A stretch of 64,000 bases of DNA from Candidatus Marinacidobacterales bacterium (GTDB taxonomy: Bacteria > Acidobacteriota > Vicinamibacteria > Marinacidobacterales > SMYC01): positions 1,276,069 through 1,340,068 of the forward strand of contig CBDEGF010000003.1 in the NCBI GenBank assembly GCA_965237685.1. The letters run 5' to 3'. A model generated the notes under the pieces. That model saw only the letters and a program-made list of their open reading frames with translations. It was not told the origin of the DNA and searched no databases. How positions within the stretch are numbered: the stretch's first letter is position 1; every line of letters starts with the position of its first letter. Positions 4,977-46,221 of the stretch are shown here, piece after piece. A program made the position numbers and the translations under genes.

Positions 4977-4999
4977 GAGCTCTGCGTCCCTCTCAGAAG

Positions 5000-26868: not shown

Positions 26869-27843
26869 GTGGTCATCGAAGGCGTCGTAACCGGGGACCT
26901 CATCGTGGCTGCGGGCGTCGTCGAGGTCAGCGGGCAGGTGCAGGGCGACGTTCTCTTCGCCGGGGGGCGGATCGAGATCACCGGCCGCGTCGACGGGAGC
27001 GTCCGTGGCTTCGGAGGCACCGTCGAGATCAAGGGAACCGTCGGTCGGAACGTTACGTTCTGCGGCAATGAGCTGCGACTGGAGCGCGATGGCCGGGTTC
27101 TGGGAAGCGTCATCGTTGCCGGCGAGACCTTCTTTCAGGAAGCCTCTGTGGAACGCGACATCCTCGTCGGCGCAACCAGACATGAGCTCCGGGGACGCAT
27201 CGGGGGCAACGCCCTCGTTGCCGGCGAGGAGCTGTCCATCGGACGAGACGCCGAGATCCTCGGGACGGTGACCTTCTACGGAAAGACTGAGCCCGAGGTG
27301 TCACCCGAAGCTCGCCTCTCGTCCGAAGTGACGTTCGAGAGCGTCGAGGAGCTCGACGACGACGACGGGAGCGGCGTGATCTCCTTCATGCTCAAGTGGG
27401 CGGCGGCGTTCCTGTTCGGCGCGGTGCTGGTGATTCTCGCACCTCGTTTTCGAGCGGCGGTCGCGGAGAACATATCCCCCTACGGTTGGGCCATGCTCGT
27501 CGGAGCGCTGGCTCTTCTGGCCATTCCGGTGACCGCGATCGTGGTGCTCTTGACCGTCGTCGGTATTCCGATTGCCATGGCGCTCCTGTTCATCTACGTC
27601 GTCAGCGTCTACGCCTCGCACATTTACGTCGGACACTGGATCGGCTCGGAGACACTCGGTCAGGCCGCGACTCTGACGCAACAGATGGGCCGACTGGCGC
27701 TGGGCCTGGCGCTCATCTACTTCAGCTCCCTCATCCCATACGCGGGGGTGCTCATCGAGGCCATCATCCTGATTTGGGGACTAGGAGCGATCGTCCGGAC
27801 GGTGTACGACGGCGTCCGGCGTGGGAGCTTGCAGACCGCGTAG
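26869..27843 (+). CDS. bactofilin-like (polymer-forming cytoskeletal, beta-helix) domain protein with a C-terminal polytopic membrane region. N-terminus uncertain.
   Basis: Repeating VxG beta-helix units (VVTGDLIVAAGVVEVSGQVQGDVLFAGGRIEITGRVDGSVRGFGGTVEIKGTVG...). The repeats already begin upstream of the first in-frame start (RYRLVAGETLDNDLIVAGE), so a frameshift or non-canonical start is likely. Confidence 0.5.
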   Translation: MVIEGVVTGDLIVAAGVVEVSGQVQGDVLFAGGRIEITGRVDGSVRGFGGTVEIKGTVGRNVTFCGNELRLERDGRVLGSVIVAGETFFQEASVERDILVGATRHELRGRIGGNALVAGEELSIGRDAEILGTVTFYGKTEPEVSPEARLSSEVTFESVEELDDDDGSGVISFMLKWAAAFLFGAVLVILAPRFRAAVAENISPYGWAMLVGALALLAIPVTAIVVLLTVVGIPIAMALLFIYVVSVYASHIYVGHWIGSETLGQAATLTQQMGRLALGLALIYFSSLIPYAGVLIEAIILIWGLGAIVRTVYDGVRRGSLQTA

Positions 27844-29537: not shown

Positions 29538-30181
29538 TTGTGCTCCAATAAGAGAAGCCAAGAGTTTATGTGGAGTTAAGGACGGGGAAAGTAAAACAGC
29601 AGGATAAATTAGCGGGTTCGGTCGATGGATGGTTAAGACCCGGCGTATTTACAATTACGGGTCTAATGTGGACCCCTGGCGGGACACCCCTACTGGAAGC
29701 ACAAACATGAAACATAGGATATAAGTTATTGTATTGGGTAGCCGTATAGTAATCGCCCTCCTATTTGATGTCAAGGTCGAAATCACGGCGAGGTCGCACA
29801 AAACTCGACGACCGTTCGTAACTTATTTACAAAAGGAGTGTTAATTAACGTGTTCGCTTTCGAACACGTTACTACTGCGTGTCGGTGAGCAAAGTTCGGT
29901 TTTCACAACGATGGGGCTTCGTAAACACCGGTTTCCCGAAACTACTTGATTTCAATGGGTGTTTTCCCTTACTATTGTCCCAGAGTCGAGATAGACAACT
30001 AGCTCAAACATCACCAGCGAGATTCTGACAACACGCACACCGCGTTCTTGACGCGCTTTTTCTAGCGCTCACGAAGGCTGGGCGCCCGGGGTCCAGGTGC
30101 GAGTCCACACTTCAGACCGACACAGCCGGCGTGTCACGCCCGCACCAGACCGACGTCCAGGAGCAGGATAAGGAGAAGAAG
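29538..30181. promoter_or_regulatory. 640-bp AT-rich (~47% GC vs ~65% background) non-coding leader or divergent promoter region between leuB and the NfeD-flotillin operon. It contains several palindromes.
   Basis: No ORF of 60 or more codons. Palindromes: AGACCCG-N16-CGGGTCT (29637-29666), a 24-bp perfect palindrome (29847-29870), and GTTTCccGAAAC (~29932). Confidence 0.5.
29847..29870. promoter_or_regulatory. 24-bp perfect palindrome AACGTGTTCGcttTCGAACACGTT. It is a candidate operator or hairpin.
   Basis: Read directly from the sequence. An AAGGAG lies 11 nt upstream and the GTG inside the palindrome opens a 12-codon ORF (VFAFEHVTTACR). Confidence 0.4.
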
Positions 30182-30973
30182 GTGCAGGAGTTTTTGGCGG
30201 CCATCATGGCCTTCCCGACAGCGGTTTTCACCGTGCTGTTGGGATTTGTCTTGCTGTACTGGTTTTCCGTGATCCTCGGTGTGCTCGATCTCGATTTCCT
30301 GGACAGCCTGTTGGGCCTCGACGCGGCGGAGGGCGCCCTGGATGGCGCCGTCGAAACTCTGGAGGGTGCCGCGGAGGGCGCCCTCGAAGGTGTCGGCGAG
30401 GCCCTGGACGGCGTGGACGGGGCCCTGGAAGGCGGGGCGGAGGCTGGCGAAGCCGGCGCCGCCGATACGGTCGAAGGCGCCAGAGGCCTGCTGCACGCCC
30501 TGGGTGTTCAAGGTGTTCCCATCACCTTTCTAGGGAGTTTCATCATTTTCTGGGCCTGGGTGATCAGTTTCTTCGTGATGCAGCTTATCGGCGGTCCTGC
30601 CGCGTCGGGCGCGATGGGCGCGGTCATCGGCATCGGGGTCGCCTTCTTCGGGGTCGCCGCGGGCGTCGTCCTCGGTGCGTTGTGCGTGCGACCGTTGAGC
30701 GGGCTGTGCAAAGTGCACCAGGCTCCCGGGCGTGCTTCGCTCGTAGGAAAAATGTGCACCGTAACGTCTCTACGCGTGGACGCCAGTTCCGGCCAGGCGG
30801 AGATCGACAACGGGGGCGCCGGGGTCGTGGCAGAGGTGCGCTGTCTTCAGACCAACGATCTTGTGAAGGGCTCCCAGGCCCTCGTGTTCAAATACGACGC
30901 TTCCAAGGAGGTCTTTCATATCGGCCCGGTCGATCGGGCGATCACCGAAGTGGAGCGGCTTACGACCGACTGA
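30182..30973 (+). CDS. NfeD/YqiJ-like membrane protein (three TM helices plus a C-terminal OB-fold) with a Gly/Ala/Glu-rich repeat loop
   Basis: ORF track 30131..30973 (GTG). GTG 30182 is preferred because AAGGAG sits 5 nt upstream. TM helices, then ASLVGKMCTVTSLRVDASSGQAEIDNGGAGVVAEVRCLQTNDLVKGSQALVFKYD (NfeD-type OB beta-barrel). The stop is 19 nt before the flotillin start. Confidence 0.7.
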   Translation: MQEFLAAIMAFPTAVFTVLLGFVLLYWFSVILGVLDLDFLDSLLGLDAAEGALDGAVETLEGAAEGALEGVGEALDGVDGALEGGAEAGEAGAADTVEGARGLLHALGVQGVPITFLGSFIIFWAWVISFFVMQLIGGPAASGAMGAVIGIGVAFFGVAAGVVLGALCVRPLSGLCKVHQAPGRASLVGKMCTVTSLRVDASSGQAEIDNGGAGVVAEVRCLQTNDLVKGSQALVFKYDASKEVFHIGPVDRAITEVERLTTD

Positions 30974-30992
30974 GCAGTTGCAGGGGGAAAAT

Positions 30993-33008
30993 ATGAACGA
31001 CATCATGGTTTGGTTCGCCATCGGCGCCGCGGCGATCATGGGCTTCGGCATGCTCATGATGGTCGCCAAGTTCTACCGTAAGGTGGAGCAAGGCAAGGCG
31101 CTCATCGTCAACAAAATGCGGAAAGAGCCCGCTGTCACTTTCACCGGCGATTACGTCCTGCCGGTGATTCACAAGGCCGAAGTCATGGACATCTCGGTGA
31201 AAACCATCGAGATCGACCGGCGAGGCAAGGAAGGCCTCATATGCGGCGACAACATCCGTGCCGACATCAAGGTTACGTTCTTCGTCCGAGTGAACAACCT
31301 CAAGGAAGATGTCATCAAGGTCGCGCAGGCGATCGGCTGCGCACGGGCCTCTTCCCCGGAGACTCTCGAAGCACTCTTCAGCGCCAAGTTCTCCGAAGCC
31401 CTCAAGACGGTCGGCAAGCAACTCGACTTTGTCGACCTCTATACCAAGCGTGACGAATTCCGCGACGCTATCATCCAAATCATTGGACGCGACCTGAACG
31501 GCTACAAGCTCGAGGACGCCGCCATTGATTACCTCGAACAAACGCCTATGGAGCATCTCGAGGCAACCAACATTCTCGACGCCCAGGGCATCCGGAAGAT
31601 CACCCACCTCACCTCTCTCGAGCACGTTCGCACCAACGAGTTCGAGAACAACGAGAAGAAGTCTATCCGTAAGCAGGATGTCGAGGCGGCAGAAGCCATT
31701 CTCGAGCTCGACCGGCAGCACGCCGATGCCGAGTCGAAGCAGAAGCGCGAGATCGAGTCGGTGCGCGCCCGCGAAACGTCCGCCCTCAATCAGGTACAGG
31801 CGGAGGAGCGCCTCAAAGCGGAGACCGCTCGCATCAAAACGGATGAAGAGCTGGCCATCGCCGAAGAGAACAAGATGCGACAGGTCGAGGTCGCTCAGAA
31901 GAACCGCGAGCGGGTCATCGCGGTCGAAACCGAACGTGTCGAGAAAGATCGACAGCTCGAAGCCGTCTCCCGCGAGCGGGAGGTCGAGCTCCTGAGGATC
32001 GACAAAGAGAAGGCCCTGGAGGTCGAGCGCAAAGCCATTCAGGACGTCATCCGCGAGCGCGTGGCCGTCGAGAGGACGGTCGTGGAAGAACAAGAGCGCA
32101 TCAAAGAGCTGGTGGTCGTCGAAGAGGCGAAGCGCTTGAAGCAGGCCACGATCATCGCCGCCGAGGCGGAGGCCGAAGAAAGGCTGGTCAAGGACATCAA
32201 AGCGGCCGACGCCGAAGAGCAGGCGGCGAAGTTCCGCGCCCGCGAGCGCGTTACCCTCGCCGAGGCCGAGCTCGAAGCCTCCGACCGCGAAGCGAAGGCC
32301 AAGATGCGCATCTCCGAAGGTGTGCAGGCCGAGTCCGCGGCAGAGGGCCTGGCCCAGGCCCGGGTCAAGGAGGCCGATGCCGTGGCCACCGAGAAGTACG
32401 GCCTCGCCGAGGTTCGCCTCAAGGAAGCCGATGCGGCTGCCATCGAGCGCGTCGGCGCGGCGGAAGCCTCGGTCATCAGCGACAAGTTCAAGGCCGAGGC
32501 CGCCGGAATCGCGGAGAAGGCAGAGGCCATGAAGCAGCTGGACGCATCGAGCCGCGAGCACGAGGAGTTCCGGCTCAGGATCGAGAACGAGCGTGTCATC
32601 AGCATGGGCGCCATCAAAGCCCGCGAGGCCATCGCCGAATCGAAGGCGGAGATTCTCGCCGAAGCTCTCAAGAACGCCGACATCGACATCGTGGGGGGCG
32701 ACGGAGCGTTCCTCGACCGCATGGTAAATTCCATCGGCATGGGCAAGGCGGTGGACGAGTTCGTCGGGAAGAGCGACACGGTCTCACGACTCCTGAGCAG
32801 CTACCTCAACGGTGACAAGGACTTCATGAGCGACGTCAAGAAGGCGGTCTCGGCCGCTGGCATCACCGGCGACGGGCTGAAGGACATCACCATCGGTGCT
32901 CTCCTCGGGAACCTGATGTCGAAGACGAGCGGTGACGACCTGGCGAAGCTGAAGAAGCTCGAGCGCCAGGCGCGCGCCCTCGGAATGGAAGACGTGGAGT
33001 TGTCGTGA
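30993..33008 (+). CDS. flotillin-family protein (SPFH/band-7 domain plus a long EA-rich coiled coil)
   Basis: ORF track 30978 (TTG). ATG 30993. N-terminal TM (MNDIMVWFAIGAAAIMGFGMLMMV). SPFH core (KALIVNK...ISVKTIEIDRRGKEGLICGDNIRADIKVTFFVRV). ~350 aa of E/A/R/K heptad-like repeats. Confidence 0.85.
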   Translation: MNDIMVWFAIGAAAIMGFGMLMMVAKFYRKVEQGKALIVNKMRKEPAVTFTGDYVLPVIHKAEVMDISVKTIEIDRRGKEGLICGDNIRADIKVTFFVRVNNLKEDVIKVAQAIGCARASSPETLEALFSAKFSEALKTVGKQLDFVDLYTKRDEFRDAIIQIIGRDLNGYKLEDAAIDYLEQTPMEHLEATNILDAQGIRKITHLTSLEHVRTNEFENNEKKSIRKQDVEAAEAILELDRQHADAESKQKREIESVRARETSALNQVQAEERLKAETARIKTDEELAIAEENKMRQVEVAQKNRERVIAVETERVEKDRQLEAVSREREVELLRIDKEKALEVERKAIQDVIRERVAVERTVVEEQERIKELVVVEEAKRLKQATIIAAEAEAEERLVKDIKAADAEEQAAKFRARERVTLAEAELEASDREAKAKMRISEGVQAESAAEGLAQARVKEADAVATEKYGLAEVRLKEADAAAIERVGAAEASVISDKFKAEAAGIAEKAEAMKQLDASSREHEEFRLRIENERVISMGAIKAREAIAESKAEILAEALKNADIDIVGGDGAFLDRMVNSIGMGKAVDEFVGKSDTVSRLLSSYLNGDKDFMSDVKKAVSAAGITGDGLKDITIGALLGNLMSKTSGDDLAKLKKLERQARALGMEDVELS

Positions 33009-33018: not shown

Positions 33019-36000
33019 ATGACTACCGAGAGCGAGGCAGGCACTGTCAGCATCGAGCGCGGCACCTACGAGATCATCCGCGACCGGCTCCTCGGTCAAG
33101 GGAAAGAGCTCTCCACCAGGGCCGAGGCGCTCAACAAGAAGCGCCTCGAGCTCTTCGGTGGAACCGAGCTCGCGGTCATCGGCAACGAGCGGATCCGTAC
33201 CGCCAACAACTGCGTTCCCAGGGACATCAAGGAAGTCGGTCCCTTTCTCCTCTTCGGCTACAACGTCTTCATCGGCCTCAAGACCGAGACGGCGGTCGAG
33301 GACGTTTTCAGCCTTCATCGCTTCGAGGAGACCGACGGGGGCTTCACGTTCAATGCGGTGGCTCCGGACTCCCCCGATTACTTCCTGTCCGATCCCAGGT
33401 TACTGAAGGATTTCCGGGAGCTCTACGAGTATTACAAGAATTCTCGTCTGATCCAGCTCCGCCGCCTCGAAGGCAAGATCCTGGCCGTCTTCCAGATCGG
33501 CGAGAAGATATCGGACATCAGAGCGTTCCGCTGGGCGGTGGATGTCGATGGCAAAATCACCTACATCGACAACCGCGGCGAGCGGGATCACACCTTTCCT
33601 CCGCAGCATGACTTCGAGTGGACCCCTACCTCTCGAGAAGACCACGTCGCCGGTCGCCACCCACACGTCTCGATCCTGGACGAGGTCTTCGTCGAGACAG
33701 TGGGTGGCGACCTTACGGTGAAGGTGGAGGACAACACGGAATCCGGAACGGGGGTTTACGCCGAGCCGGTGGACGAGCCCGATCAGTCGCTCGACGACGC
33801 CGAGATCCATTACGCAAAAGTGGGGACGCTCATTCTGCTCAAGGTCCGCCCCTACAACGAGACCACCTGGCGTTATCTCGTCTTCAACACGCGGACGCAT
33901 AAAGTGAACCGCATCGACGCGATCGGACAGGCCTGTCTCGAGCTTCCCGAGGATCACGGCCTCATCTTCCCCGGCGGATACTACCTTCAGAGCGGCACCA
34001 CCAAGACGTTCGATCGCAACATCACAGGGATGGAGTTCCTTCGAACGATCCGCTCACCGAACGGCGAGGACGTCTTGTACGTCTTTCATCAGCGCAAGGA
34101 AGGCCGCACCATCCTGCTGCCTTACAACATGATCCGGAAGGAAGTACCGAATCCCCTCTACTGCCACGGCTTCAGTCTCTTTCCCGATGGCAAGGCAGTC
34201 ATCTTCCGCGCCGACTCGGATGAGCCGACCCGCGTCCACCGGATGCAGATCTGGCGCACACCGTTCATGAGCGACGAGCACATGACGGTCGCTCCCGTCA
34301 GCGACTCCTACCTCCAGAAAGTGGGGAACGCCGATCTCGTCCGGGGGGTGTCCGACTGCCTGAGCCTGGTCCGCATGGTGAACGAGCAGACGCCGACCCG
34401 ACAGAAGTACGAGGACCTGGTCGCCGCTGCCGAGCGGGTCATCGACGGCTACTACTGGCTCGACCATCAGGAAGTCGGAGAGCCCGCCGGCGTGGTGCGA
34501 GAGATTCACGAGACCGCAGAAGCGATCATCGACGAGTTCGAAAAAGTGGAAGCGCTTCGCCAGCTGGCGCGCGAAGCGATCGCGGAGACCGAGGCGAACA
34601 TCCAGGAGATCTTCCGTGGCATCTACCCGGACTCGTGGACCACCATCGACCGCTACGTCGAGTATCTGAGCAAGCTTCGCTCCGCACGAGGTCACGCCAT
34701 CACGCTCCGCGAGAAGCGCTACGTGGACCTGACGCGCCTCGACGAGCTCGAGCAGGAAGTCATCGAGCGCTTCGACGCGTTGAGCGCCCGCGCGGTCGAG
34801 TTTTTGACCGGGGAAGCTGCCCTCGCTCCCTACCACGAGCAGATCGCCACGCTCGAATCAGGCGTCGACGCACTCTCGAAAGTCACCGAAGCGAACGAGC
34901 ATCAGGAGAAGCTCCAGGCGGTCAGTGATGGCCTCGACTTGCTGACCGAGGTGGTGACCTCGCTCGACATCGAGGATGCGACGGTGCGAACCCAGATCCT
35001 GGAGAACATTTCCGAGATCATGGGAGGCCTGAACCGCGTGCGCGCCCTGATCGCCATCCGGCGCAAGGAGCTTCTTGGAAAAGAGAGCATCGCCGAGTTC
35101 GGCGTTCAGTTCCAGCTTTTGAGTCAGAGCGTGACCAGCGCCTTGAGTCTGTCCGACACACCGGAGGCCTGCGACGAGCAGCTCCCCAAGATGATGCTCC
35201 AGCTCGAGGAGCTCGAGACCCGCTTCTCGGAGTTCGACGAGTTCGTCACCGAGCTCACCACCAAGCGCGAGGAGATCTACGAAGCTTTCACGTCGAAGAA
35301 ACAGTCCCTCGTCGATCGGCGGCAGCGACGCGCGCAGCGGCTTCTCCAAGCGGCCGAACGCATTCTCCAGGGCGTGATCCGGCGCGCCGAGACGTTCGAG
35401 ACCGACGACGATCTCAACGCCTTCTTTGCCGCCGACGCGATGGTGGCAAAGCTTCGCGCCACCGCCGACAAGCTCCGGAAGCTCGGGGATTCGGTAAACG
35501 CCGACGAGGTCGAAACTCGCCTGAAAACCGCCCGGGAAGAAGCAGCACGAGGACTTCGGGATCGCCGCGACATCTACGAGGAGGGCGCGAGCGTCATCAA
35601 GCTCGGCAAGCATCGCTTCAGCGTCAACACGCAGCCTCTCGAGCTCACGATGGTGCCGCGGGACGGCGGCATGGCCTTCCACCTCACCGGAACTGGCTTC
35701 TACGAGACTGTGTACGACGAAACCTTTTCCGCAACGAAGGACTTCTGGAACCAGGAGCTCGTTTCCGAGACGAAAGAAGTCTACCGGGGCGAGTATCTCG
35801 CCGCCTCGATTCTCGAGGATGCCGAGCTCGGCCGCGCCGCTCTGTCGATCGCGAAGCTTCAGGAGGCGGCCCTCGCCGACGGCCAGCTCCTGTCGCTCGT
35901 ACGCGACTATGCCTCGGAGCGCTACGACGAGGGCTACGAGCGAGGCCTCCACGATGCCGATGCGACCCTCATCCTCTCGAAGCTCCTGCCGATGCACCAG

Positions 36001-38397
36001 ACGGCCGATCTGCTTCGCTTCACGCCGGAGACCCGGGCTGCCGCCACGCTGTTCTGGGCTCTGTACGAGGACCGAACGCAGCGAAGCTACTGGGAGAACC
36101 AGGCGAAGAGTCTGGTGAGGCTGCGATCCCAGTTCGCGGGGAGCGGCGCGGCGCGCGGCCTGGGAGAAGAGCTCACCGGGGCCATGAAGGTCTTTTTCGA
36201 GAACATGGGCGTCGAGATACCGGATGACGCGCTGCGTCTGGCCGGCGCCTATCTCCTCGAGGAGATCGCCAAGGAGCCCCAGCGCTTCGTTCTGAGCGCC
36301 GAAGCCAAAGCGCTCCAGAACGAGTTCGAGCAGCATTTGCGCGCCTCCGGCACCGATCGCGATTTCGAGCAGGACATGCGCTCGTTACGGGACGACCCGG
36401 TGCGACGGTACCGGCTGGCGATCTCCTGGCTCGAGGGCTACTTGAAGCATATCGGCGCTCTCGAGCCGCTTCGGCACGTGCTCGCCGAGACGGTCGCGGC
36501 CACCCTGACCGAGGGTGTCATCAGCCGCGAAACCTCGAGTGCTCTTCACGCGGTCGAGCTCGACGGGTTGCTGGGCCAGCACCCGCGCATCGCGAGCGGC
36601 AAGATGACGCTCCAGCTCGACGAGTTCCTCTCGCGTCTGGGAACGTTCCGGCACGAGCGCGTGCCGGGCTTCCGTCGCTTCCAGGCGGCGAGGCACGCTG
36701 TGCTCGAGAGCGAGCGGAAGAAGCTCCGTCTCGATGAGTACAAAGCCAAAGTGATGTCCGCCTTCGTGAGAAACCACCTCATCAACGAGGTCTATCTTCC
36801 GGTCATCGGGGACAACCTGGCGAAGCAGATGGGCGCCCTCGGCGCCGGCAAGCGCACCGACCTCATGGGCATGCTGCTTCTCATCTCTCCGCCCGGCTAT
36901 GGCAAGACGACGCTCATGGAGTACATCGCCAACCGCCTCGGCCTGGTGTTCATGAAGATCAACGGGCCTTCCCTGGGGCATTCCGTGACGTCGCTCGATC
37001 CCGGCGAAGCCCCCAACGCCACCGCGCGACAGGAAGTGAACAAGCTCAACCTCGCCTTCGAGATGGGCAACAACGTGCTCCTGTATATTGATGATATCCA
37101 GCATACCCATCCGGAGTTCCTGCAGAAGTTCATCTCCTTGTGCGACGCCCAGCGGAAAGTGGAGGGTGTCTGGAAGGGTGAGACGCGCACCTACGACTTG
37201 CGCGGCAAGAAGTTCGTGGTGTGTATGGCGGGCAATCCCTACACCGAGTCCGGCGAAAAGTTCCAGATCCCCGACATGCTGGCCAATCGTGCCGACACCT
37301 ACAACCTCGGTGACATCCTCGAAGGCAAGGACGAGCTCTTCGCACTCAGTTACATCGAGAACAGTCTCACCTCGAACTCTTATCTGGCAACTTTGACCAG
37401 CCGGGAGCCAGGTGACATCGATAAGCTGGTGCGCATGGCACGCGGCGAGCCCGTACAGGCCGATCAGCTCTCCCACTCCTACTCGGCGGTGGAGCTGAAC
37501 GATCTGCTCGAAGTCCTGAAGAAGCTTCTGCACGTGCAGGGGCTCTTGCTGCGCGTGAACCAGCAGTACATCCTTTCGGCGTCGCAGCAGGACGTCTACC
37601 GTACCGAGCCACCCTTCAGGCTCCAGGGAAGCTACCGCAACATGAACAAGCTGGCGGAAAAAGTCGTTCCCGCGATGAACGCAAAGGAGCTGGAGGCTCT
37701 CATCGACGACCACTACACGGGCGAGGCCCAGACGCTTACGACCGGGGCGGAGGAGAACCTCCTCAACCTGGCGGAGATGCGCGATCGCCTCTCACCCGAA
37801 CAAGCGGCCCGCTGGGACGAGATCAAGAAGGCCTTCGTCCGCGTCCAGCGCATGGGAGGTGGCGATGACGACCCTGTCACCCGACTGACCGGACAGTTGA
37901 GCCTCGTCTCGGAGCGACTCGAGGACATTGGTGAGAGCATCGACAAAGCAGCGAACGATCGACCGGCCGTGGCAGTGGCTTCCGGTGGAGCACTCGCGGC
38001 TGCGCCAGCCGCACCCGCGAACGTCGATGTAAAGATCGACTTCGAGCCGTATCTGAACAAGCTGAACGAGTTGCTCGAGGCGCTCAAGAACGGCCAGGAG
38101 AAGGCGCCGGTCGTGGCAGGGTCCATCACCGACGAGCCGCCGCCGGACTACGAGCTCATCTCGCGTGAGGCCTACCTCATCCAGAACACGCTGATTCCCC
38201 TCCTTCAGTTCATGGCGCACCGCTTCAGGGGCTACCGGGACGTCGAGGATCCCAAGGTGAAGGCCCTCATCTCGTCCCTGGAGAAGGTGGACGACCTGAA
38301 CGAGCTGGTGAGCGCGCTCGAGAAGATCAACGTCTCCGCACTCGCTGACATGACCGAGGACGAACTCGAAGAGGCGGAGCAGCAGGATCCACCGTAG
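33019..38397 (+). CDS. giant (1792 aa) multidomain protein: N-terminal beta-rich domain, ~800-aa helical/coiled-coil region, AAA_5 (dynein/MoxR-type) ATPase module near residues 1280-1480, and a helical C-terminus
   Basis: Uninterrupted 5379-nt ORF. ATG is 10 nt after the flotillin stop. Walker A LLISPPGYGKTTLMEY. Walker B NNVLLYIDDIQHTHPEFLQKF. Sensor-1 KKFVVCMAGNPYTE, plus FQIPDMLANRADTYNL (the R finger / LxxRF-like motif of AAA_5). No VWA/MIDAS partner domain seen. Confidence 0.8.
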   Translation: MTTESEAGTVSIERGTYEIIRDRLLGQGKELSTRAEALNKKRLELFGGTELAVIGNERIRTANNCVPRDIKEVGPFLLFGYNVFIGLKTETAVEDVFSLHRFEETDGGFTFNAVAPDSPDYFLSDPRLLKDFRELYEYYKNSRLIQLRRLEGKILAVFQIGEKISDIRAFRWAVDVDGKITYIDNRGERDHTFPPQHDFEWTPTSREDHVAGRHPHVSILDEVFVETVGGDLTVKVEDNTESGTGVYAEPVDEPDQSLDDAEIHYAKVGTLILLKVRPYNETTWRYLVFNTRTHKVNRIDAIGQACLELPEDHGLIFPGGYYLQSGTTKTFDRNITGMEFLRTIRSPNGEDVLYVFHQRKEGRTILLPYNMIRKEVPNPLYCHGFSLFPDGKAVIFRADSDEPTRVHRMQIWRTPFMSDEHMTVAPVSDSYLQKVGNADLVRGVSDCLSLVRMVNEQTPTRQKYEDLVAAAERVIDGYYWLDHQEVGEPAGVVREIHETAEAIIDEFEKVEALRQLAREAIAETEANIQEIFRGIYPDSWTTIDRYVEYLSKLRSARGHAITLREKRYVDLTRLDELEQEVIERFDALSARAVEFLTGEAALAPYHEQIATLESGVDALSKVTEANEHQEKLQAVSDGLDLLTEVVTSLDIEDATVRTQILENISEIMGGLNRVRALIAIRRKELLGKESIAEFGVQFQLLSQSVTSALSLSDTPEACDEQLPKMMLQLEELETRFSEFDEFVTELTTKREEIYEAFTSKKQSLVDRRQRRAQRLLQAAERILQGVIRRAETFETDDDLNAFFAADAMVAKLRATADKLRKLGDSVNADEVETRLKTAREEAARGLRDRRDIYEEGASVIKLGKHRFSVNTQPLELTMVPRDGGMAFHLTGTGFYETVYDETFSATKDFWNQELVSETKEVYRGEYLAASILEDAELGRAALSIAKLQEAALADGQLLSLVRDYASERYDEGYERGLHDADATLILSKLLPMHQTADLLRFTPETRAAATLFWALYEDRTQRSYWENQAKSLVRLRSQFAGSGAARGLGEELTGAMKVFFENMGVEIPDDALRLAGAYLLEEIAKEPQRFVLSAEAKALQNEFEQHLRASGTDRDFEQDMRSLRDDPVRRYRLAISWLEGYLKHIGALEPLRHVLAETVAATLTEGVISRETSSALHAVELDGLLGQHPRIASGKMTLQLDEFLSRLGTFRHERVPGFRRFQAARHAVLESERKKLRLDEYKAKVMSAFVRNHLINEVYLPVIGDNLAKQMGALGAGKRTDLMGMLLLISPPGYGKTTLMEYIANRLGLVFMKINGPSLGHSVTSLDPGEAPNATARQEVNKLNLAFEMGNNVLLYIDDIQHTHPEFLQKFISLCDAQRKVEGVWKGETRTYDLRGKKFVVCMAGNPYTESGEKFQIPDMLANRADTYNLGDILEGKDELFALSYIENSLTSNSYLATLTSREPGDIDKLVRMARGEPVQADQLSHSYSAVELNDLLEVLKKLLHVQGLLLRVNQQYILSASQQDVYRTEPPFRLQGSYRNMNKLAEKVVPAMNAKELEALIDDHYTGEAQTLTTGAEENLLNLAEMRDRLSPEQAARWDEIKKAFVRVQRMGGGDDDPVTRLTGQLSLVSERLEDIGESIDKAANDRPAVAVASGGALAAAPAAPANVDVKIDFEPYLNKLNELLEALKNGQEKAPVVAGSITDEPPPDYELISREAYLIQNTLIPLLQFMAHRFRGYRDVEDPKVKALISSLEKVDDLNELVSALEKINVSALADMTEDELEEAEQQDPP

Positions 38398-38470: not shown

Positions 38471-39229
38471 ATGGGCCTTTGGGCACGCATCAAATCCGTC
38501 TGGTACGCCCTGCTCAACCAATCGGTCACCGACATGGAAGACAAGCACGTCATCGCCCTGGCCGAGAGCAAGCTCCGGCAAGCTACCGAGCGGCTCAAAG
38601 ATGCCCGGCAAGGGCTCATCAACTACCAGACGCTGGTCTTGAAAGTGCAGCAGCAGGTCGTGCGCGAGAAGGCTCGTATCCAGAGCCTTACCGCACAAAT
38701 AAAAACGCACCTCAAAGCAGGCCAGGAGGACCTGGCGGCTCAGCTCGCCATGGAGCTCGCCCAGGTTAACAACGAGCTCGCAAGCAACGAGGAGCAGCTC
38801 ACACAACACCAGAGTGCCTACGAGAATAACCTCCTGAAGATGAAGGCCGCCCTCAAGGAGATCCAGTCTACGAAGAAGGAGCTGGAGAAGATGAAGGCGG
38901 CGCTGCAGATGGAGAGCGCTCTGGCCGAGGTGTCGGAGACGGCGGGCACCCTCAACACGAGCTTCGACGTGTCCTCCGACCTCGGAGATATCATGGGTCG
39001 CGTGGACGACCAGATCAACAAAGCCCGGGCGCGGTCCAAAGTCGCAGACGATTTGGGAGATCAGGACCTCGAGCGGCTGAAAGCCCAGCAGGAGGCCGAA
39101 AAAGCGCAGGCGCAGGACCTTCTCGAGCAGTTCAAGATCGAGCAGGGGCTGGTCGAGCCCTCCTCGACTCCTACCGAAAAGACCGTTGGCCGAGAGCGGG
39201 AAGCCGCGACCGAAGGAGACGGTAACTAG
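38471..39229 (+). CDS. pspA: PspA/IM30/Vipp1 family protein (bacterial ESCRT-III superfamily)
   Basis: GGAGG RBS 6 nt upstream. MGLWARIKSVWYALLNQSVTDMEDKHVIALAESKLRQATERLKDARQGLINYQTLVLKVQQQVVREKARIQSLTAQIK... is the hallmark PspA N-terminal amphipathic helix plus coiled-coil hairpin. Confidence 0.85.
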   Translation: MGLWARIKSVWYALLNQSVTDMEDKHVIALAESKLRQATERLKDARQGLINYQTLVLKVQQQVVREKARIQSLTAQIKTHLKAGQEDLAAQLAMELAQVNNELASNEEQLTQHQSAYENNLLKMKAALKEIQSTKKELEKMKAALQMESALAEVSETAGTLNTSFDVSSDLGDIMGRVDDQINKARARSKVADDLGDQDLERLKAQQEAEKAQAQDLLEQFKIEQGLVEPSSTPTEKTVGREREAATEGDGN

Positions 39230-39277
39230 ACGACTTCCGGAAAATAAACGCAAAGGCGCCAAGGCGCAAAGAACGGA

Positions 39278-41044
39278 ATGGCTACATCGCCCTCAGTCCT
39301 CACCCGCGACTCACCCACCTGGGCGCAAGAGCTGGCCCACCGCTACGTCAGCGGCGCCGCCAGCGTGTTCCTCGCCCACGGCAACGTCCACGATCTCGTA
39401 CCGGCGGGCGACGACCGGGCGTTCCTTTCGCTCGAGGACTACTTCGCGACCGAGCTCTTTGGAAGTCGCGACATCGTCATTCTCTACGACCGCGGCAGCG
39501 GTATTCGCTTCCTCGCTCCCGGAAACAACGACCGCCGGCAGGCAATGCGCCAGGACTTCCAGCGAACGCTCGAAACCATCGACATGGTCAACGAGACCAG
39601 CTTCGCCAAATCCCGCCCCAAGGATCCGACGCTCGTCTTCGAGCTCCTGGACCGGTACATCCTCCACAAGCTCCTGGAGACGCCGCGTGACGGAAACCGG
39701 AAGAGCCTGGCGATTCTCATCCGCTACCTCGAGACCATCACTCCGGCGGTGGACGGCTCATGGCTCACCGGTGCGCTGGGAGAGAACCTTCTCAAGGTCT
39801 TGAACTGGGCGAACGAGCCCACGATTCGAAGTGGCGACGTCACGTTTTGCCTCGTCACGGAAAATTTAGCCGACATCAGCCGGCGGCTCGTGGAGAATCC
39901 GTTCATCTCGAAAGTCGAGATCCCGCTCCCCGACCAGCCGACGCGCCGACGCTACGCCGAGCTCCTCTTGTCGTCGCGCCAGGAGACATCGAAGCTCAGC
40001 GCCGCGTCACTAGCGACAGAAGCCAACGGGCTCACCCTGGTCGGTCTCTCTCAGGCGATCGGCCAGGCTCGAAGCGAGTCGGACAGCTTCGGGCTCGAGT
40101 CTCTCAGGCGCGCAAAGAAAGAGCTCATCGAGAAGCAGTGTTTCGGCCTGGTCAAGTTCATGGCTCCTCGCCACGATCTCTCCGCAGTGGTTGCGCCGAA
40201 GGGCGTCAAGAAGCGACTCGAGCAGGACGTCATGCTCTTCAAGAAGGGCCGCTTCGACGCCCTTCCCATGGGCTATCTCCTGTGTGGTGTGATCGGCACC
40301 GGCAAGACCTTCACCACCACTTGTCTAGCAGGCAGTCTCGGCATCCCAGCCGTTGTCTTCAAGAACCTCCGGAGCAAGTGGGTGGGAAGCTCCGAAGGCA
40401 ACATGCAGAAGGTTCTCTCGGTCATCAAAGCGCTCGGCCCGGTGGTCGTGATCATCGACGAGGCCGACGCGGCGCTGGGCACACGCGCGGCCTCGGGAGA
40501 TAGTGGTACGTCGAGTCGGATGTTCGCGATGATCTCGTCCCTGATGAGTGACACCCAATACCGCGGCCGCATTCTGTGGATGCTTCTGACATGCCGGCCC
40601 GATCTCCTGCCCGTCGACTTGAAGCGGCAAGGTCGCTGCGAGGTGCACATTCCCCTGTTCTCGCCCGAGACCGAAGCGGAGCGCAAGGAGATGTTTCTCG
40701 CCATGGCGAGCAAGAACGGCGTCGACGTCGGCTCGGGCGACGTGCCTTCCCTGCCCGAAGGACTCTCCGGAGCGGACATCGAGAGTCTTCTCGTGCAGTG
40801 TGTTCGTCGAGCCGCCATCGAGGGCGCACCGAATCCGACCGCCGAGCACATGCGCCGAGCGGTAGAAGGTTTCATCAGCCCGGACTACGGTCTCGAGAAA
40901 GAGCTCCAGCGGCTGGTCGCCGTGCAGGAGTGTACGGACCGGGACTTCCTGCCCAGGAAGTGGCGCAAGGAGCTCTCGTCGGCCGAAGGGGCCTCCGCCA
41001 TCACCAAGCGCATCAGCGAGCTTCAGGCCCTTCTCGGCTCGTGA
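39278..41044 (+). CDS. tandem-AAA ATPase: a degenerate N-terminal AAA-like domain (D1) plus a canonical classic-AAA C-terminal domain (D2). Cdc48/Vps4-like disassemblase architecture.
   Basis: D1: FLAHGNVHD sits in place of Walker A, but TFCLVTENLADISRRLVENPFISKVEIPLPDQPTRRRYAELLL retains the AAA lid/SRH pattern. D2: Walker A LLCGVIGTGKTFTT. Walker B VVVIIDEADAAL. SRH LLTCRPDLLPVDLKRQGRCEVHIPL. No GAFTGA and no C-terminal HTH, so it is not a PspF-type sigma54 activator. Confidence 0.8.
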   Translation: MATSPSVLTRDSPTWAQELAHRYVSGAASVFLAHGNVHDLVPAGDDRAFLSLEDYFATELFGSRDIVILYDRGSGIRFLAPGNNDRRQAMRQDFQRTLETIDMVNETSFAKSRPKDPTLVFELLDRYILHKLLETPRDGNRKSLAILIRYLETITPAVDGSWLTGALGENLLKVLNWANEPTIRSGDVTFCLVTENLADISRRLVENPFISKVEIPLPDQPTRRRYAELLLSSRQETSKLSAASLATEANGLTLVGLSQAIGQARSESDSFGLESLRRAKKELIEKQCFGLVKFMAPRHDLSAVVAPKGVKKRLEQDVMLFKKGRFDALPMGYLLCGVIGTGKTFTTTCLAGSLGIPAVVFKNLRSKWVGSSEGNMQKVLSVIKALGPVVVIIDEADAALGTRAASGDSGTSSRMFAMISSLMSDTQYRGRILWMLLTCRPDLLPVDLKRQGRCEVHIPLFSPETEAERKEMFLAMASKNGVDVGSGDVPSLPEGLSGADIESLLVQCVRRAAIEGAPNPTAEHMRRAVEGFISPDYGLEKELQRLVAVQECTDRDFLPRKWRKELSSAEGASAITKRISELQALLGS

Positions 41045-41259
41045 CGCTCGCAGTCGATTCCCATGCGGGCTACCGCGGGGAAGAGACACCACGCCGCTTC
41101 TGCATCGAGGGTCGCTGGGTGGCAGTCGACGAGATTCTCGGGCGTTGGCGTACTCCGGAGCATTGCTACTTCAAAGTTCGCTCGGAAGATGGCGCCACGT
41201 GCACCCTTCGGCAAGACGTCGCGTCGGGCACCTGGGAGCTTCATGCGATTTCCTCGTGA
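41041..41259 (+). CDS. small (72 aa) hypothetical protein, translationally coupled to the tandem-AAA gene
   Basis: GTG overlaps the TGA of the upstream gene (GTGA). TLAVDSHAGYRGEETPRRFCIEGRWVAVDEILGRWRTPEHCYFKVRSEDGATCTLRQDVASGTWELHAISS. Looks like a small beta-rich domain (W/Y/F-rich). Ends 39 nt before the convergent DUF790 gene. Confidence 0.4.
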   Translation: MTLAVDSHAGYRGEETPRRFCIEGRWVAVDEILGRWRTPEHCYFKVRSEDGATCTLRQDVASGTWELHAISS

Positions 41260-41300
41260 CACGCCCAGTAACCTTCCCTACACTGAGTTGGAGGATACGC

Positions 41301-41597
41301 TCACAGAGTATTGCCGGGCGCTTCCATGATCTCCAGCAACCTCGCCGCATCGATGCGCCTGCGGAACTGCAGGACGGGCGTGTTGGGTGGCAGGTCTGAT
41401 TCGGAACACTGTCGCTCCTCGTCGATGCAGAGAATGAGATTAGGGATACGCGCAGCGCGCAGGAACGCGAGCTTTTTGAAGATGTAGTCGGGAGTCCAGA
41501 ATCCTACTATCTCGACGAACCAGGCGCGGGCAGGATCGATACGATGGCGCAAAAAAAAGTCGGGGAAGATGAGCTTGCCCCCCGCCGCAATTGCGTC
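41301..41597 (-). pseudogene. DUF790/Bax1-like nuclease, C-terminal part (3' portion of the gene split by IS copy B)
   Basis: Reading across the IS in frame: ...DWDVIREPDA | IS | IAAGGKLIFPDFFLRHRIDPARAWFVEIVGFWTPDYIFKKLAFLRAARIPNLILCIDEERQC... (restriction-endonuclease-like core E..D..K-type region). Confidence 0.6.
41590..41597. repeat. target-site duplication (ATTGCGTC), left of IS copy B
   Basis: Identical octamer at 44731-44738. Confidence 0.85.
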
Positions 41598-41678
41598 GTG
41601 TCCTTGCGACAGCAGTGCGTGACTTAGGTGCTGTTGGGTTCGTAAGTTGAGCGGAGAGATTGCTCAAGGAGGCCATCG

Positions 41679-42221
41679 ATGCGCTCAAAGAAGGCAGAAC
41701 TCGAAGACGTTGTGAAACAGTTCGAAGCATGGCGGGCGAAGCCACACGGACGGCTGATCCCGGAGGAGTTGTGGAAAGCGGCGCTGGGGTTGCTCGATCG
41801 GTATGCGCCGAGCACGATCTGCAGTCATCTCCGAGTCAATGCGGCGCGATTCAAACAGGTCCGAGAGAGTGGAGGGGCTGTTGTGGGCGAGAAGCGTTTC
41901 AAGGGGCACGGGCGAACGGGTGCTACGGGTCGGTCCCCGCGCACAGTACAGGATCGGAGCGCGGCGGAGCGGGTCACGGCGTTAGCTCCAAGTGGCAACG
42001 CGTTCGTCGAGCTGCCGCAGTTCGGCATGGGCTTAGGGGGCGGCATGATGACACCGCCGCTCGGCGAGGTTCAGCATGGAGCGAGCAGATGCCGTCTGAC
42101 GGTGGAGAGCGCAGCGGGGAGCCTCACGGTCGTGACGGCGAGCGGCGAGGGTGAGAATGAGTTGGTCGAAGCCGTGTGTCGTTTCGTGCTCGGCGCGCTG
42201 GAAGGCAGCTCCCGAGCATGA
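41679..42221 (+). CDS. tnpA: IS66-family TnpA (copy B)
   Basis: Identical to copy A TnpA apart from rare substitutions. Confidence 0.7.
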   Translation: MRSKKAELEDVVKQFEAWRAKPHGRLIPEELWKAALGLLDRYAPSTICSHLRVNAARFKQVRESGGAVVGEKRFKGHGRTGATGRSPRTVQDRSAAERVTALAPSGNAFVELPQFGMGLGGGMMTPPLGEVQHGASRCRLTVESAAGSLTVVTASGEGENELVEAVCRFVLGALEGSSRA

Positions 42222-42571
42222 TCCAGCTCGTTCCCCAGCTGAAGGTGCTGGTTGCCTGCGAGCCCGTCGATTTCCGCAAGGGCATCGATTCTTTGGCTTG
42301 TGTGTGCCGGCAACAGTTCCAGCTCGACTCATTCCTCAGAACGCTATTCGTTTTCCGCAACCGTTCAGGCACGGCCCTCAAACTATTGGTCTACGACGGC
42401 CAGGGCTTTTGGTTGTGCCAGAAGCGTTTCTCGAAGGGGCGCCTGCAGTGGTGGCCGCGTCAGACGACGGATGGCGTTGCGGCGCTACCCGCCGAGCAGT
42501 TGGCGGTGCTTATCTACAACGGACTTCCGCTGCGAGCGGGGATGGCCGAGCCGTGGCGGCGGGTCGGTTGA
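42218..42571 (+). CDS. tnpB: IS66-family TnpB (copy B)
   Basis: MIQLVPQLKVLVACEPVDFRKGIDSLA... Two substitutions versus copy A (DSFLRTLF vs DPFLGTLF). Confidence 0.8.
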   Translation: MIQLVPQLKVLVACEPVDFRKGIDSLACVCRQQFQLDSFLRTLFVFRNRSGTALKLLVYDGQGFWLCQKRFSKGRLQWWPRQTTDGVAALPAEQLAVLIYNGLPLRAGMAEPWRRVG

Positions 42572-43934
42572 GCCTTTCCAACGTCTTCTGGTAGCTCCAA
42601 GGCAGCCACGACTCGGGTGCTGCTCTAGCGTCTCGAGCGTGCATGGAGATGTTCGTCAGATAGTGCACCGGGTCGACACCGTTTTTTACCGCGGTGCGGA
42701 TCATGCTCAGGAGCACGTCGCCCACGTCGGCGCCTGCCTGGGTCTTGAAGAAGAGCGAGTTCTTGCGATGCCGTTGTGAGGGCTTCAGCTCCTGCTCGAC
42801 CTCGTTGTTGTCGAGGGGCACGCCCGGCACTTCGCGGAAGCGGGTTAGCCCTTGCCAGTGATTTTTGACGTAGGAAAAGGCTTTTCCAAGGCGGCTGTTG
42901 GGCTCCACCACGCGCTCGCGGAACTGCTTTTCGATCCACTCGTAGAGCGCATCCATCACCGGCCGGCTGTGTTGCTGGTGATATGCAAGCCGCGCATCGG
43001 GGGTCATGTCGCGCGTTTCGTCGTCGTTGCGGTAGATGGTCGCGATGTCCTCGAGCACCCGCTCGCAGTGTTCGGGGAAGGCTGGCTCGGCCTCGAAGAA
43101 GTAGCGGCGTGCGTGCACCATGCACTTGGCGGTAATCCGTCGCGGCGAGCGCGGTGCCATCGAGGAGGCGTCGGCCATATGGATGACATCGCTCTCCTGA
43201 ACGGTGCGCTGATTCAGGAGCCGGTCCATGTTTTCGCCCGCATGCCGTCGTCCGCTCGCGTACAGGATGATCGGAGCAAGCGTGGCGTCCAAGCCGCGGG
43301 CAACAATGCCCGTGGTGAAGATGCCCGTGCGCTCGCCTTTGCCTTGAGTCAAGGTCTCGTTCTCCGCCATCAACGTGAGGATCCGTGCGCCGGTGTCGTC
43401 ACTGTGAACCAGCGGCCGGTTCGCGGCTATCGTCTCCATGTGGCGGAAGACCGGGAACACGGCATTCGCCATCGCTTCGACCCGCTCGAACTGCGTGGAG
43501 GCGGCAAACGGAACCCCCGCCCACTTTTGCCACTGCGCCAGGCGGTGGTGGGGCATGCCCATGGCGTAGCGCAACACCGAAACGACCGCGTCCACACTCG
43601 GATGGTACTTGCTCGCCCAGGCCTGAGACGAAAGTGGCGCTGTGAACGTCTTCTGGCAACTTGCGCATCGCAGCATCTGGCGCTCGTACACCGTCGCCTG
43701 GATCGGCGGCTGAGCCTTCAGCTCCACATCCTTGTTCGCCGCATGGGTGTCGTAGAGCTTGCCCCGGCACAGTGGCTCGGGGCAGGGGCCGCTCGCCTTC
43801 AGCTCGGGATGCGAACCCCCGCCCACTTTTGCCACTGCGCCAGGCGGTGGTGGGGCATGCCCATGGCGTAGCGCAACACCGAAACGACCGCGTCCACACT
43901 CGGATGGTTGCCAACGACAGCACGTGACTCGCAA
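42510..43934 (-). pseudogene. tnpC: IS66-family TnpC, copy B. The N-terminal ~85 aa are replaced by a duplicated internal segment.
   Basis: Matches copy A from ...HPELKASGPCPEPLCRGKLYD onward. The N-terminus MRVTCCRWQPSECGRGRFGVALRHGHAPPPP is junk derived from the duplication. Confidence 0.75.
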
Positions 43935-44580
43935 GGCCTTTGATGGAAAGCCACGGCAGGATCAGGAACCGACTGTTGTTGACCACCCGGGGAAGGTTCT
44001 TCTGCCGCGTTGCGTCATCCCAACCGATGAAGCCGTCACGCGCCTGAAGCCACCGCGCCGCCGAGGAGAACTGCACGCACCCACAGAGCTCCCGCCGAGG
44101 ATTCGACATCCAGACCAAGTACCGCAGGTGCGCGCCAAAGGCCACCTTGTGGCCCAGGTAGTGGTAACGCGCGACCAGTTCCCTCCATAGCGCTCGCTCC
44201 TCAGCGTTCGCCACCAAGCCCAGCATCACCGGAGCGACGTCCGATAGCTTGCCCTCACGCCGTGGCCGCTCGCGACCAGCCTTCGTGTAGTGGATGCTCG
44301 TCGGTCCGCGGCGCCGCTGCTCGTGACGCGGGGGCAACGTCACCAGCCCCTTCGCTTCGACAACCTCCAGGTACTCGTAGCATTCCCGGGTCTTGAGATT
44401 GCCGTTCCGACGAACCCACCCCAGGCCCTCACAGATCGTGCGCGCCAGCTCGTGCCGGGACAGACCACACGTGGCGATGATCTCCGTCAGCACGCTCCAT
44501 TCCTCGGCGGTCACGGTCGTGCCGCAAAAGGTGGGTCGCTTGGCTGCGGTGTCGAGTGCAGCGTTTCCTGCCTGGGTCAC
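43399..44580 (-). pseudogene. IS accessory protein, copy B (chimeric 3' end after ...HVLSLA)
   Basis: The first ~255 aa are identical to copy A. The reading frame then runs into out-of-frame tnpC sequence. Confidence 0.6.
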
Positions 44581-46212: not shown

Positions 46213-46221
46213 GTCGAAGGG

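Follow-up and report, generated by a model that had tools for sequence, protein, structure and literature searches.

A giant AAA+ protein of Candidatus Marinacidobacterales belongs to a widespread bacterial family linked to flotillin genes

INTRODUCTION

What is the function of a protein of 1792 amino acids that carries a single AAA+ ATPase module? The question is raised by an open reading frame (ORF) in a 64,000-nucleotide stretch of DNA from Candidatus Marinacidobacterales bacterium (GenBank assembly GCA_965237685.1, contig CBDEGF010000003.1, positions 1,276,069 to 1,340,068), which is called the window below. The original prediction, made from the letters of this DNA without database searches, presented the protein as an orphan architecture. 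Judged by its sequence, the giant protein is a typical member of a widespread bacterial DUF3686–DUF7902–AAA+ family, for which NCBI uses the name "DNA repair ATPase". The gene almost always lies directly behind a flotillin gene, and for this reason a role in remodeling a membrane scaffold is favored here over DNA repair.

RESULTS AND DISCUSSION

The giant protein represents a large and conserved family

A search of 5.8 billion proteins, in which 8000 candidates were scored, yielded 7077 clusters with E ≤ 1e-10. The best 120 clusters are 56–72% identical to the query, and at least 88% of the query is aligned (more than 90% for nearly all). Nearly all members of this set are 1630–1940 amino acids long (one is labeled partial), and nearly all carry the same set of Pfam domains. 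Where product names are given among these 120 clusters, they are "DNA repair ATPase", "AAA family ATPase", and "MoxR-like ATPase". A second search, started from a Vibrio member whose N-terminal domain is 34% identical, led to proteins of identical architecture from Vibrio, Proteus mirabilis, Pseudoalteromonas, Cellvibrio, and others. Identity in this distant set is as low as 33%, and the range for the family is 33–73% over more than 1600 residues. Collinear homologues of ∼1600–1900 amino acids carry the motifs SPPGYGKTT, DDIQH, GNPY, and ANR in their C-terminal AAA+ module. Homologues longer than 1500 amino acids with these motifs, for which the original prediction had suggested a search, are found widely.

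An exhaustive HMMER scan with residues 1–489 against 1.84 billion representatives at 50% identity gave 796 matches with E ≤ 1e-3. Those that seem to be full length have ∼1550–2040 amino acids, and in almost all of them the domain is located at or near the N-terminus. Four entries (P0150, P0193, P0226, and P0263) place it further in, and the shorter matches look like metagenomic fragments. In the metagenomic entry P0263, residues ∼189–587 of a flotillin, its C-terminal two thirds, are joined directly to a giant ATPase that lacks its first ∼220 residues. Another metagenomic entry, P0193, has an unrelated N-terminal region of ∼660 amino acids ahead of the propeller described below. These two entries were not used as evidence for fusion because both look like truncations or assembly artifacts, although a natural fusion is possible.

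When one genome is counted per species, at least 592 species have a relative. These include Myxococcota, many Actinomycetota, Pseudomonas, Xenorhabdus, Lysobacter, Methylomonas, Acidobacteriota, and Planctomycetota, and the family is also present in Vibrio, Proteus, Streptomyces, and Myxococcus. The complete chromosomes of Corallococcus coralloides, Labilithrix luteola, and Actinoallomurus each hold a full-length homologous gene.

The ORF runs uninterrupted from ATG to TAG as originally described, with a GC content of 62.1% rather than the 65% first reported. Its GC fraction is 0.83 at third codon positions and 0.38 at second positions, and the chance of 1792 stop-free codons at this composition is ∼4e-23. 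These values rule out a chance reading frame in GC-rich DNA, and the long antisense ORFs opposite the gene are the usual shadows of GC-rich coding DNA. Two genes joined by a sequencing error, an explanation that the original prediction had itself raised, can also be ruled out, since the closest homologues are collinear at full length (88–100% of the query is aligned) and full-length copies reside in complete chromosomes. The proposed purifying selection agrees with the conservation of the family across its identity range and with catalytic residues that are invariant in 238 of 238 homologues. The encoded protein has a mass of ∼200 kDa. No transmembrane segment was found in it by a composition and heptad scan, and the protein is therefore cytoplasmic. 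A promoter and terminator scan of the operon gave no signal above the shuffled expectation, and tRNA and Rfam scans gave no matches.

A flotillin gene precedes the giant gene in nearly all loci

The giant gene is the third in an intact operon of five (Table 1). The protein encoded by the first gene has no match in Pfam or NCBIfam, and it aligns over its full length with a Hymenobacter "DUF1449 family protein" (RefSeq; YqiJ family) with a BLASTP E value of 1e-12. Upstream of this gene, on the opposite strand, is a gene for an isocitrate/isopropylmalate dehydrogenase. The second operon gene encodes a flotillin-like protein, in which a membrane segment at the N-terminus and a Band_7 domain are accompanied by a long coiled coil rich in Glu and Ala. 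The stop codon of this gene is separated from the giant ATG by 10 nucleotides (nt) in the window, and this gap is 0–18 nt across the window and its closest relatives.

Eighty related loci were compared, of which 74 have sufficient upstream sequence to judge. The latter include Myxococcota, Actinomycetota, Gammaproteobacteria, Acidobacteriota, Planctomycetota, and others. In 73 of the 74 loci, the gene immediately before the giant gene, on the same strand, encodes a flotillin homologue (46–72% identical), and in 62 of these 73 a homologue of the 280-amino-acid YqiJ-like protein is encoded ahead of the flotillin gene. Across phyla, the giant gene is tightly spaced and near-obligately co-transcribed with flotillin and YqiJ/NfeD genes, and its link with PspA is recurrent but variable.

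The fourth and fifth operon genes encode a PspA/IM30 protein and a protein with two AAA regions. The C-terminal half of the latter is a classical AAA domain resembling those of CDC48, PAN, and IteA. Its N-terminal half is degenerate and AAA-like, without a Walker A motif, and residues 1–291 have no Pfam match. Both genes occur in the same order, and are ∼66–71% identical, in the two closest metagenomic relatives (L081 and L082). They are absent from a 63%-identical relative labeled Myxococcota. Among the 80 loci they were not detected beside the giant gene, except for an upstream PspA gene in several Gammaproteobacteria. The joining of this pair (38471–41044) to the flotillin–ATPase operon was seen only in L081 and L082, the closest relatives of the window.

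The genes located 3′ of the giant gene vary by lineage and can be PLD, PspA with AAA, or none. In Pseudomonas morbosilactucae, the order is DUF2170, PspA, YqiJ-like, flotillin-like, giant, and PLD. The last of these genes (positions 15128–15817 of locus L057) encodes a PLD/HKD-family hydrolase directly 3′ of the giant gene, which hints at a tie between the system and phospholipid turnover. On a plasmid of Hymenobacter sp. DG25B (NZ_CP010056.1; positions 586–10893 of locus L084), the genes are arranged in the order Tir-chaperone, PspA, DUF1449, flotillin-like, and "DNA repair ATPase". A gene for a LexA-family regulator (HTH and S24 peptidase) is divergent from this operon. It may control the operon in Bacteroidota and may also have favored the "DNA repair" name.

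Table 1. Coordinates of the giant protein, its parts, and neighboring genes in the window
Feature	Position (nt)	Strand	Basis or description
YqiJ/DUF1449-like (short NfeD-like) membrane protein, 280 aa, first operon gene	30131–30973	+	Three hydrophobic segments, C-terminal beta domain
Flotillin-like SPFH protein, 676 aa (likely start ATG 30993)	30978–33008	+	Pfam Band_7, E = 1e-8
Giant protein, 1792 aa, soluble, DUF3686–DUF7902–AAA+ family ("DNA repair ATPase")	33019–38397	+	Uninterrupted ORF, ATG 33019 to TAG 38397
N-terminal domain, residues 1–500	33019–34518	+	Helix 14–46, ∼28 beta strands 52–413, helical bundle 431–500; DUF3686 at 30–479
Helical, coiled-coil-prone, charged spacer, residues ∼501–850 (∼350 residues)	34519–35568	+	Pfam DUF7902; heptad and composition scan
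Conserved middle region, residues ∼855–1240	35581–36738	+	AlphaFold2 model, pLDDT mostly >90; invariant columns
AAA+ module, residues ∼1253–1522	36775–37584	+	Alpha/beta core, pre-sensor-1 beta hairpin (1380–1393), helical lid
Walker A SPPGYGKTT, residues 1290–1298	36886–36912	+	G1293, G1295, K1296, T1297, T1298 invariant in 238/238 homologues
Walker B LLYIDDIQ, residues 1354–1361	37078–37101	+	D1358, D1359, Q1361, H1362 invariant in 238/238 homologues
Sensor-1 asparagine N1406, in CMAGNPY (1402–1408)	37234–37236	+	Invariant in 238/238; end of strand beta-4 in model
R1424 in PDMLANRAD, candidate arginine finger	37288–37290	+	Invariant in 238/238; end of helix alpha-4 in model
Helical extension after lid, residues ∼1523–1639	37585–37935	+	Alignment columns and AlphaFold model
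Variable C-terminal tail, residues ∼1640–1792	37936–38394	+	Ala/Pro-rich linker, then acidic helices; pLDDT 40–75
PspA/IM30 (bacterial ESCRT-III) protein, 252 aa	38471–39229	+	Pfam PspA_IM30, E = 4e-14; 70% identical and in same place in L081 and L082
Two-AAA protein, 588 aa	39278–41044	+	Pfam AAA, E = 4e-21, residues 334–459; NCBIfam and PADLOC matches
IS66 orf1	41679–42221		In insertion 41045–48200
TnpB_IS66	42176–42571		In insertion 41045–48200
IS66 DDE transposase	42510–43934	opposite	In insertion 41045–48200
Broken helicase-like ORF	45577–46212	−	Helicase C-terminal motif
Broken helicase-like ORF	46111–46476	+	DEAH motif

An operon class of this kind has been described by bioinformatics. 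Ravi et al. (mSystems 2024; PMC11237479) report a "novel AAA+ ATPase with beta-propeller and coiled coil" in flotillin/YqiJ/PspA operons. These operons also encode CesT/Tir–PspA, a three-transmembrane (3TM) protein of the YqiJ/YuaF type and, in some Proteobacteria, a PLD/HKD hydrolase. Abbreviated operons without PspA are more widespread. Their Table S3 places a "Betapropeller+Coiled-coil+AAA-ATPase" after a flotillin gene in Dokdonia. The Pseudomonas and Hymenobacter homologues described above are encoded in precisely these types of operon. The operon in the window agrees in the domain order and size of its ATPase and in the gene order YqiJ-like, flotillin-like, ATPase. It differs from the extended form, which has a CesT/Tir (DUF2170)–PspA pair at the operon head; in the window that pair is lacking from the operon head, and PspA is located downstream. 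Ravi et al. separately describe PspA paired with a protein that has an inactive and an active classical AAA domain. Genes four and five of the window match this pair, which is unjoined in their report and joined to the flotillin module in the window.

The family was already catalogued in Pfam and its flotillin/YqiJ/PspA context was published in 2024, and the claim of an orphan architecture does not hold. By its own terms, the earlier proposal would be refuted by clear homology of the whole protein to a characterized family. This applies only in part, since the whole protein does belong to a known family, but one that is described by bioinformatics only. The present analysis adds the assignment of two folds (beta-propeller for the N-terminal domain, MoxR-like for the AAA+ module, in which Walker B has the DD form), a count for the flotillin link (73 of 74), the conclusion that the family name is probably wrong, and the joining of both modules in one lineage.

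In Pseudomonas aeruginosa, PA3732–PA3729 constitute the "bac" biofilm cluster (PMC10948618). The accessible portion of a 2026 survey of P. aeruginosa SPFH proteins (PMC13086221) identifies PA14_16180 as the flotillin PaFlo3, together with the short NfeD protein PA14_16160, and this portion does not mention the ATPase gene downstream from paFlo3. Genes PA3728–PA3732 are reported to be up-regulated together on phage infection (PMC12041424). A literature search found PA3728, the putative orthologue of the giant gene, in gene lists only. It found nothing on DUF3686 or "DNA repair ATPase" in connection with flotillin, and nothing relevant on DUF1449/YqiJ.

Predicted structure of the regions outside the AAA+ module

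The original prediction stated that the protein has no identifiable domain besides its ATPase module. This is contradicted by Pfam, in which DUF3686 (PF12458) matches residues 30–479 with E = 4.9e-217 (721 bits, cut-off 25; profile positions 1–448 of 448) and DUF7902 (PF25472) matches residues 601–684 (nt 34819–35070) with E = 4.2e-29 (101 bits, cut-off 26). The beta-rich N-terminus followed by a long helical region, also described originally, is borne out by a structure model and a heptad scan. Two AlphaFold models were built, both from one alignment of 43 diverse homologues.

In the model of residues 1–500 (pLDDT 88.5, pTM 0.86), the ∼28 strands of residues 52–413 group as about seven four-stranded blades. 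A Foldseek search of the Protein Data Bank (PDB) with this model, a check that had been recommended at the outset, returned beta-propellers as all of its top matches, with E values of ∼1e-6 to 1e-4 but TM-scores of only 0.2–0.3. The matching propellers belong to Elongator (Elp123), LRRK2, Ski2-3-7-8, paraoxonase, sialidases, prolyl oligopeptidases, and a Kelch domain. Because every top match is a beta-propeller, the N-terminal domain is predicted to be a beta-propeller clasped by helices; it is divergent and lacks close relatives among solved structures.

The model of residues 840–1792 has a pLDDT of 82.9. Its conserved middle region comprises a small beta unit (GKHRFSVNTQPLELT), an all-helical domain in which an invariant RYDEGYERGxHDxDA motif is located, a beta meander, and a long linker helix. 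After the lid of the AAA+ module, the motifs RTEPPFRLQGSYRNMNK and HYxGEAQTLTTGAEENL (37600–37761, residues 1528–1581) are near-invariant; they are as conserved as the catalytic motifs and have no recognized function. The C-terminal tail is only 27–36% identical, with gaps, among relatives that are otherwise ∼60% identical.

The AAA+ module resembles MoxR proteins and has an unusual Walker B motif

The single AAA+ module of the original prediction is readily recovered, with Pfam AAA, AAA_22, and AAA_5 all matching residues 1284–1411. The scores do not settle its class. The match to PF00004 (AAA) reaches 32.5 bits and covers only profile positions 1–73 of 131, AAA_5 scores 23.6 bits, AAA_22 and RuvB_N remain below their cut-offs, and there is no match to AAA_3. 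NCBIfam gives P-loop-level matches to RuvB and CDC48 only, far under their cut-offs (20–22 bits versus cut-offs of 282–299 for the RuvB models). Sequence and profile searches of the PDB detect similarity at Walker A only (p97, NVL, Rix7, and RuvB) and likewise do not resolve the class of the module.

The predicted fold is more informative. The core of the model consists of beta-1 (1286–1289), beta-2 (1310–1315), beta-3 with Walker B (1353–1358), and beta-4 (1399–1404), with beta-5 following alpha-4. By a moderate margin, the MoxR proteins CbbQ and NorQ have the folds most similar to it, followed by midasin and dynein. These closest folds, the pre-sensor-1 hairpin, and the GNP-type sensor-1 support the initial assignment, and the module appears to be of the MoxR/AAA_5 type (the pre-sensor-1 hairpin lineage), although the margin is moderate. 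The partial PF00004 match and the lack of an aromatic pore-loop-1 residue in the loop between beta-2 and alpha-2 (GHSVTSLDPGEAPNATAR) place it outside the classical AAA clade (PF00004) of Vps4, CDC48, and FtsH, although the second region of homology was not looked at on its own.

The motifs GYGKTT (1293–1298), LLYIDDIQ (1354–1361), and CMAGNPY (1402–1408) are where they had been placed. However, they are not entirely textbook examples as had been claimed. Walker B is a noncanonical DD, with D1359 in place of the glutamate of the hhhhDE form, and is followed by an invariant Q-H. This substitution is present in all 238 full-length homologues used for the invariance counts, which cover 33–100% identity; P1407 is invariant in the same set. 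The DD-Q-H arrangement (37078–37104, residues 1354–1362) may be the mark of unusual catalysis, or of an ATPase that is slow and works like a switch. Because the catalytic residues are invariant, the nucleotide site is argued to be functional, and this conservation makes it likely that the giant protein is an active ATPase. R1424 is a candidate arginine finger on the basis of general AAA+ anatomy.

Several features set the protein apart from the families that it most resembles. Proteins of the MoxR family (CbbQ, NorQ, RavA, and MoxR) stand alone with ∼250–500 amino acids, use a DE Walker B motif, and have a VWA/MIDAS partner (CbbO, NorD, or ViaA). In contrast, the module in the window is embedded in 1792 amino acids. 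As the original prediction stated, there is no VWA partner, and no VWA domain was found in the giant protein or in any of the five operon genes. Six AAA modules are concatenated in each chain of the eukaryotic proteins midasin (Rea1/Mdn1) and dynein heavy chain, whereas the giant protein has one. It therefore would need to form a homo-oligomer to produce a ring.

Possible functions of the giant protein

The explanation that we favor, and consider somewhat probable, is that the giant protein is an ATP-driven remodeler of flotillin/NfeD membrane assemblies rather than a DNA repair enzyme. We infer the following mechanism. The single AAA+ modules would assemble as a ring like those of MoxR, CbbQ, and NorQ, with R1424 completing the active site of the neighboring subunit. 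The propellers, carried on long helical arms, would bind to the cytoplasmic assembly of flotillin and NfeD or to proteins that it retains. ATP binding and hydrolysis would then assemble, remodel, or dismantle the scaffold during envelope stress. Links to envelope stress are provided by the PspA genes in the Pseudomonas and Hymenobacter operons and by the reported co-induction of PA3728–PA3732 by phage (PMC12041424). Because the motor has a pre-sensor-1 hairpin and a MoxR-like fold but no aromatic pore loop, a MoxR-like conformational remodeler is more likely than a threading unfoldase.

Functional analogies to this proposal are FtsH with HflK/C cages and Vps4 with ESCRT-III. FtsH is a classical AAA protease anchored in the membrane, and the HflK/C cage lies in the periplasm, whereas bacterial flotillins face the cytoplasm. 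The likeness is that a scaffold of the SPFH family is coupled genetically and functionally to an AAA+ ATPase; it is an analogy and implies no homology. The giant ATPase differs from FtsH in being soluble and MoxR-like, without a protease domain. With the ESCRT-III/Vps4 system it shares a polymer-forming membrane scaffold with a dedicated AAA+ ATPase, and the PspA/two-AAA pair (38471–41044) is in the same operon. The giant AAA+ module is not of the classical/Vps4 clade, and no MIT domain was found in the protein.

Several considerations weigh against this explanation. Physical contact between the giant protein and flotillin or NfeD is presumed, and gene adjacency cannot distinguish among flotillin itself, NfeD, PspA, and some other membrane protein as the client. 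The ring is assumed from the predicted fold. The DD Walker B motif may indicate slow hydrolysis or a nucleotide-dependent switch. PA3728 is taken as the P. aeruginosa orthologue from gene order in other Pseudomonas and not from the PAO1 sequence. In addition, the literature search yielded no experimental work on any member of the family.

A more ambitious version of the proposal treats the five-gene operon as one integrated ATP-driven machine for membrane repair or vesiculation. The SPFH/flotillin scaffold and the ESCRT-III/PspA scaffold would each have their own AAA+ motor, and the giant protein would be the energy source of flotillin, in the form of a MoxR-like ring with six propeller-tipped arms that reach the flotillin dome. 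We offer this version tentatively and consider it rather doubtful.

A different possibility is that the flotillin/NfeD platform is only a dock and that the clients are other membrane proteins corralled there. The giant protein would then be a MoxR-like chaperone for maturation or quality control, comparable to FtsH in HflK/C cages, with the propeller replacing a VWA adaptor. The closest folds, CbbQ and NorQ, do act in the remodeling or maturation of client complexes, beta-propellers in general serve as platforms for protein binding, and Ravi et al. (PMC11237479) propose chaperone-like assembly roles for these operons. However, no conserved candidate client gene is located nearby: the constant neighbors are the flotillin and YqiJ genes only, and the genes 3′ of the giant gene change with lineage. 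We regard this possibility as unlikely, if a little less so than those that follow.

PspA could itself be the substrate. The giant protein would in that case be the motor that disassembles or remodels the polymers of PspA (ESCRT-III), in the manner of a bacterial Vps4, with flotillin as the membrane recruiter. PspA genes do recur in the operons, upstream in Pseudomonas and Hymenobacter and downstream in the window, and PA3728–PA3732 are co-induced with the PspA gene (PMC12041424). Yet most of the 80 loci lack a detectable PspA gene nearby, whereas flotillin is nearly constant, and the PspA of the window brings its own classical AAA ATPase. Taken together with a giant AAA+ module that is not Vps4-like and that has neither an MIT domain nor an aromatic pore loop, these observations make a PspA motor improbable.

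A system for phage defense or abortive infection that senses infection at the membrane is very improbable. The Pseudomonas cluster is reported to be phage-induced (PMC12041424), a PLD/HKD hydrolase gene is found 3′ of the giant gene in some Proteobacteria, and the neighboring two-AAA protein weakly matches IetA/IteA models. PADLOC, however, gives only LmuB (E = 5e-6, on the coiled coil) and P-loop-only IetA and mad8 matches for the giant protein, none of them over its full length. The giant gene was found in 0 of 50,697 phage records and in 13 of 72,556 plasmid records, most of which are megaplasmids, chromids, or chromosomes filed as plasmids. The protein is also highly conserved across phyla, unlike fast-evolving defense genes. 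Because the flanking housekeeping genes are syntenic in relatives, the operon does not appear to be a variable defense island.

The role implied by the database name, that of a DNA repair ATPase, deserves hardly any credence, since the Pfam description of PF12458 ("ATPase involved in DNA repair") and the NCBI product name are inherited, the weak RuvB-model matches are confined to the P-loop region, and the LexA-type gene occurs beside the operon in one lineage (Hymenobacter), whereas no DNA-binding, nuclease, or helicase domain was found in the giant protein by domain and fold searches and the neighbors of its gene are membrane-scaffold genes rather than DNA repair genes. The name probably is misleading.

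Flanking DNA

Comparison with the syntenic relative L081 reveals damaged flanks around the five intact operon genes. Between the two-AAA gene and a DUF502 gene (48203–48862), the window has ∼7 kb that are extra relative to L081 (41045–48200). This insertion is laden with IS66 genes and also contains the broken helicase-like ORFs (Table 1), and the CxxCxxCC gene of relatives is missing from it. On the upstream side, TerB is preceded in relatives by genes for an ECF sigma factor, a PilZ protein, and a DUF8173 protein of 544 amino acids. In the window, region 25150–27843 retains only DUF8173 residues ∼185–530 (26779–27810, with a weak bactofilin-like match), and no ECF sigma-factor or PilZ homologue was found upstream of the operon. 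The region ahead of the intact operon therefore seems to have undergone local gene decay. The original description of the region as pseudogene-rich is therefore apt for the insertion and for the lost or truncated upstream genes, but not for the operon itself. An operon that is intact amid damaged flanks agrees with selection acting on the giant ORF.

Implications for flotillin biology

Bacterial flotillins and NfeD proteins have been widely studied as organizers of membrane microdomains, and we know of no energy-consuming partner that has been established for them. According to a 2025 review (PMC7619361), a Vps4-like ATPase for ESCRT-III seems to be absent from bacteria. The conservation of the giant family over more than 1600 residues and the near-constant place of its gene behind a flotillin gene make it the obvious candidate for a flotillin motor. 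The name "DNA repair ATPase", meanwhile, is spreading through annotation. If the five-gene operon does encode one integrated machine, then the giant protein would supply the long-missing energy for the dynamics of bacterial flotillins.

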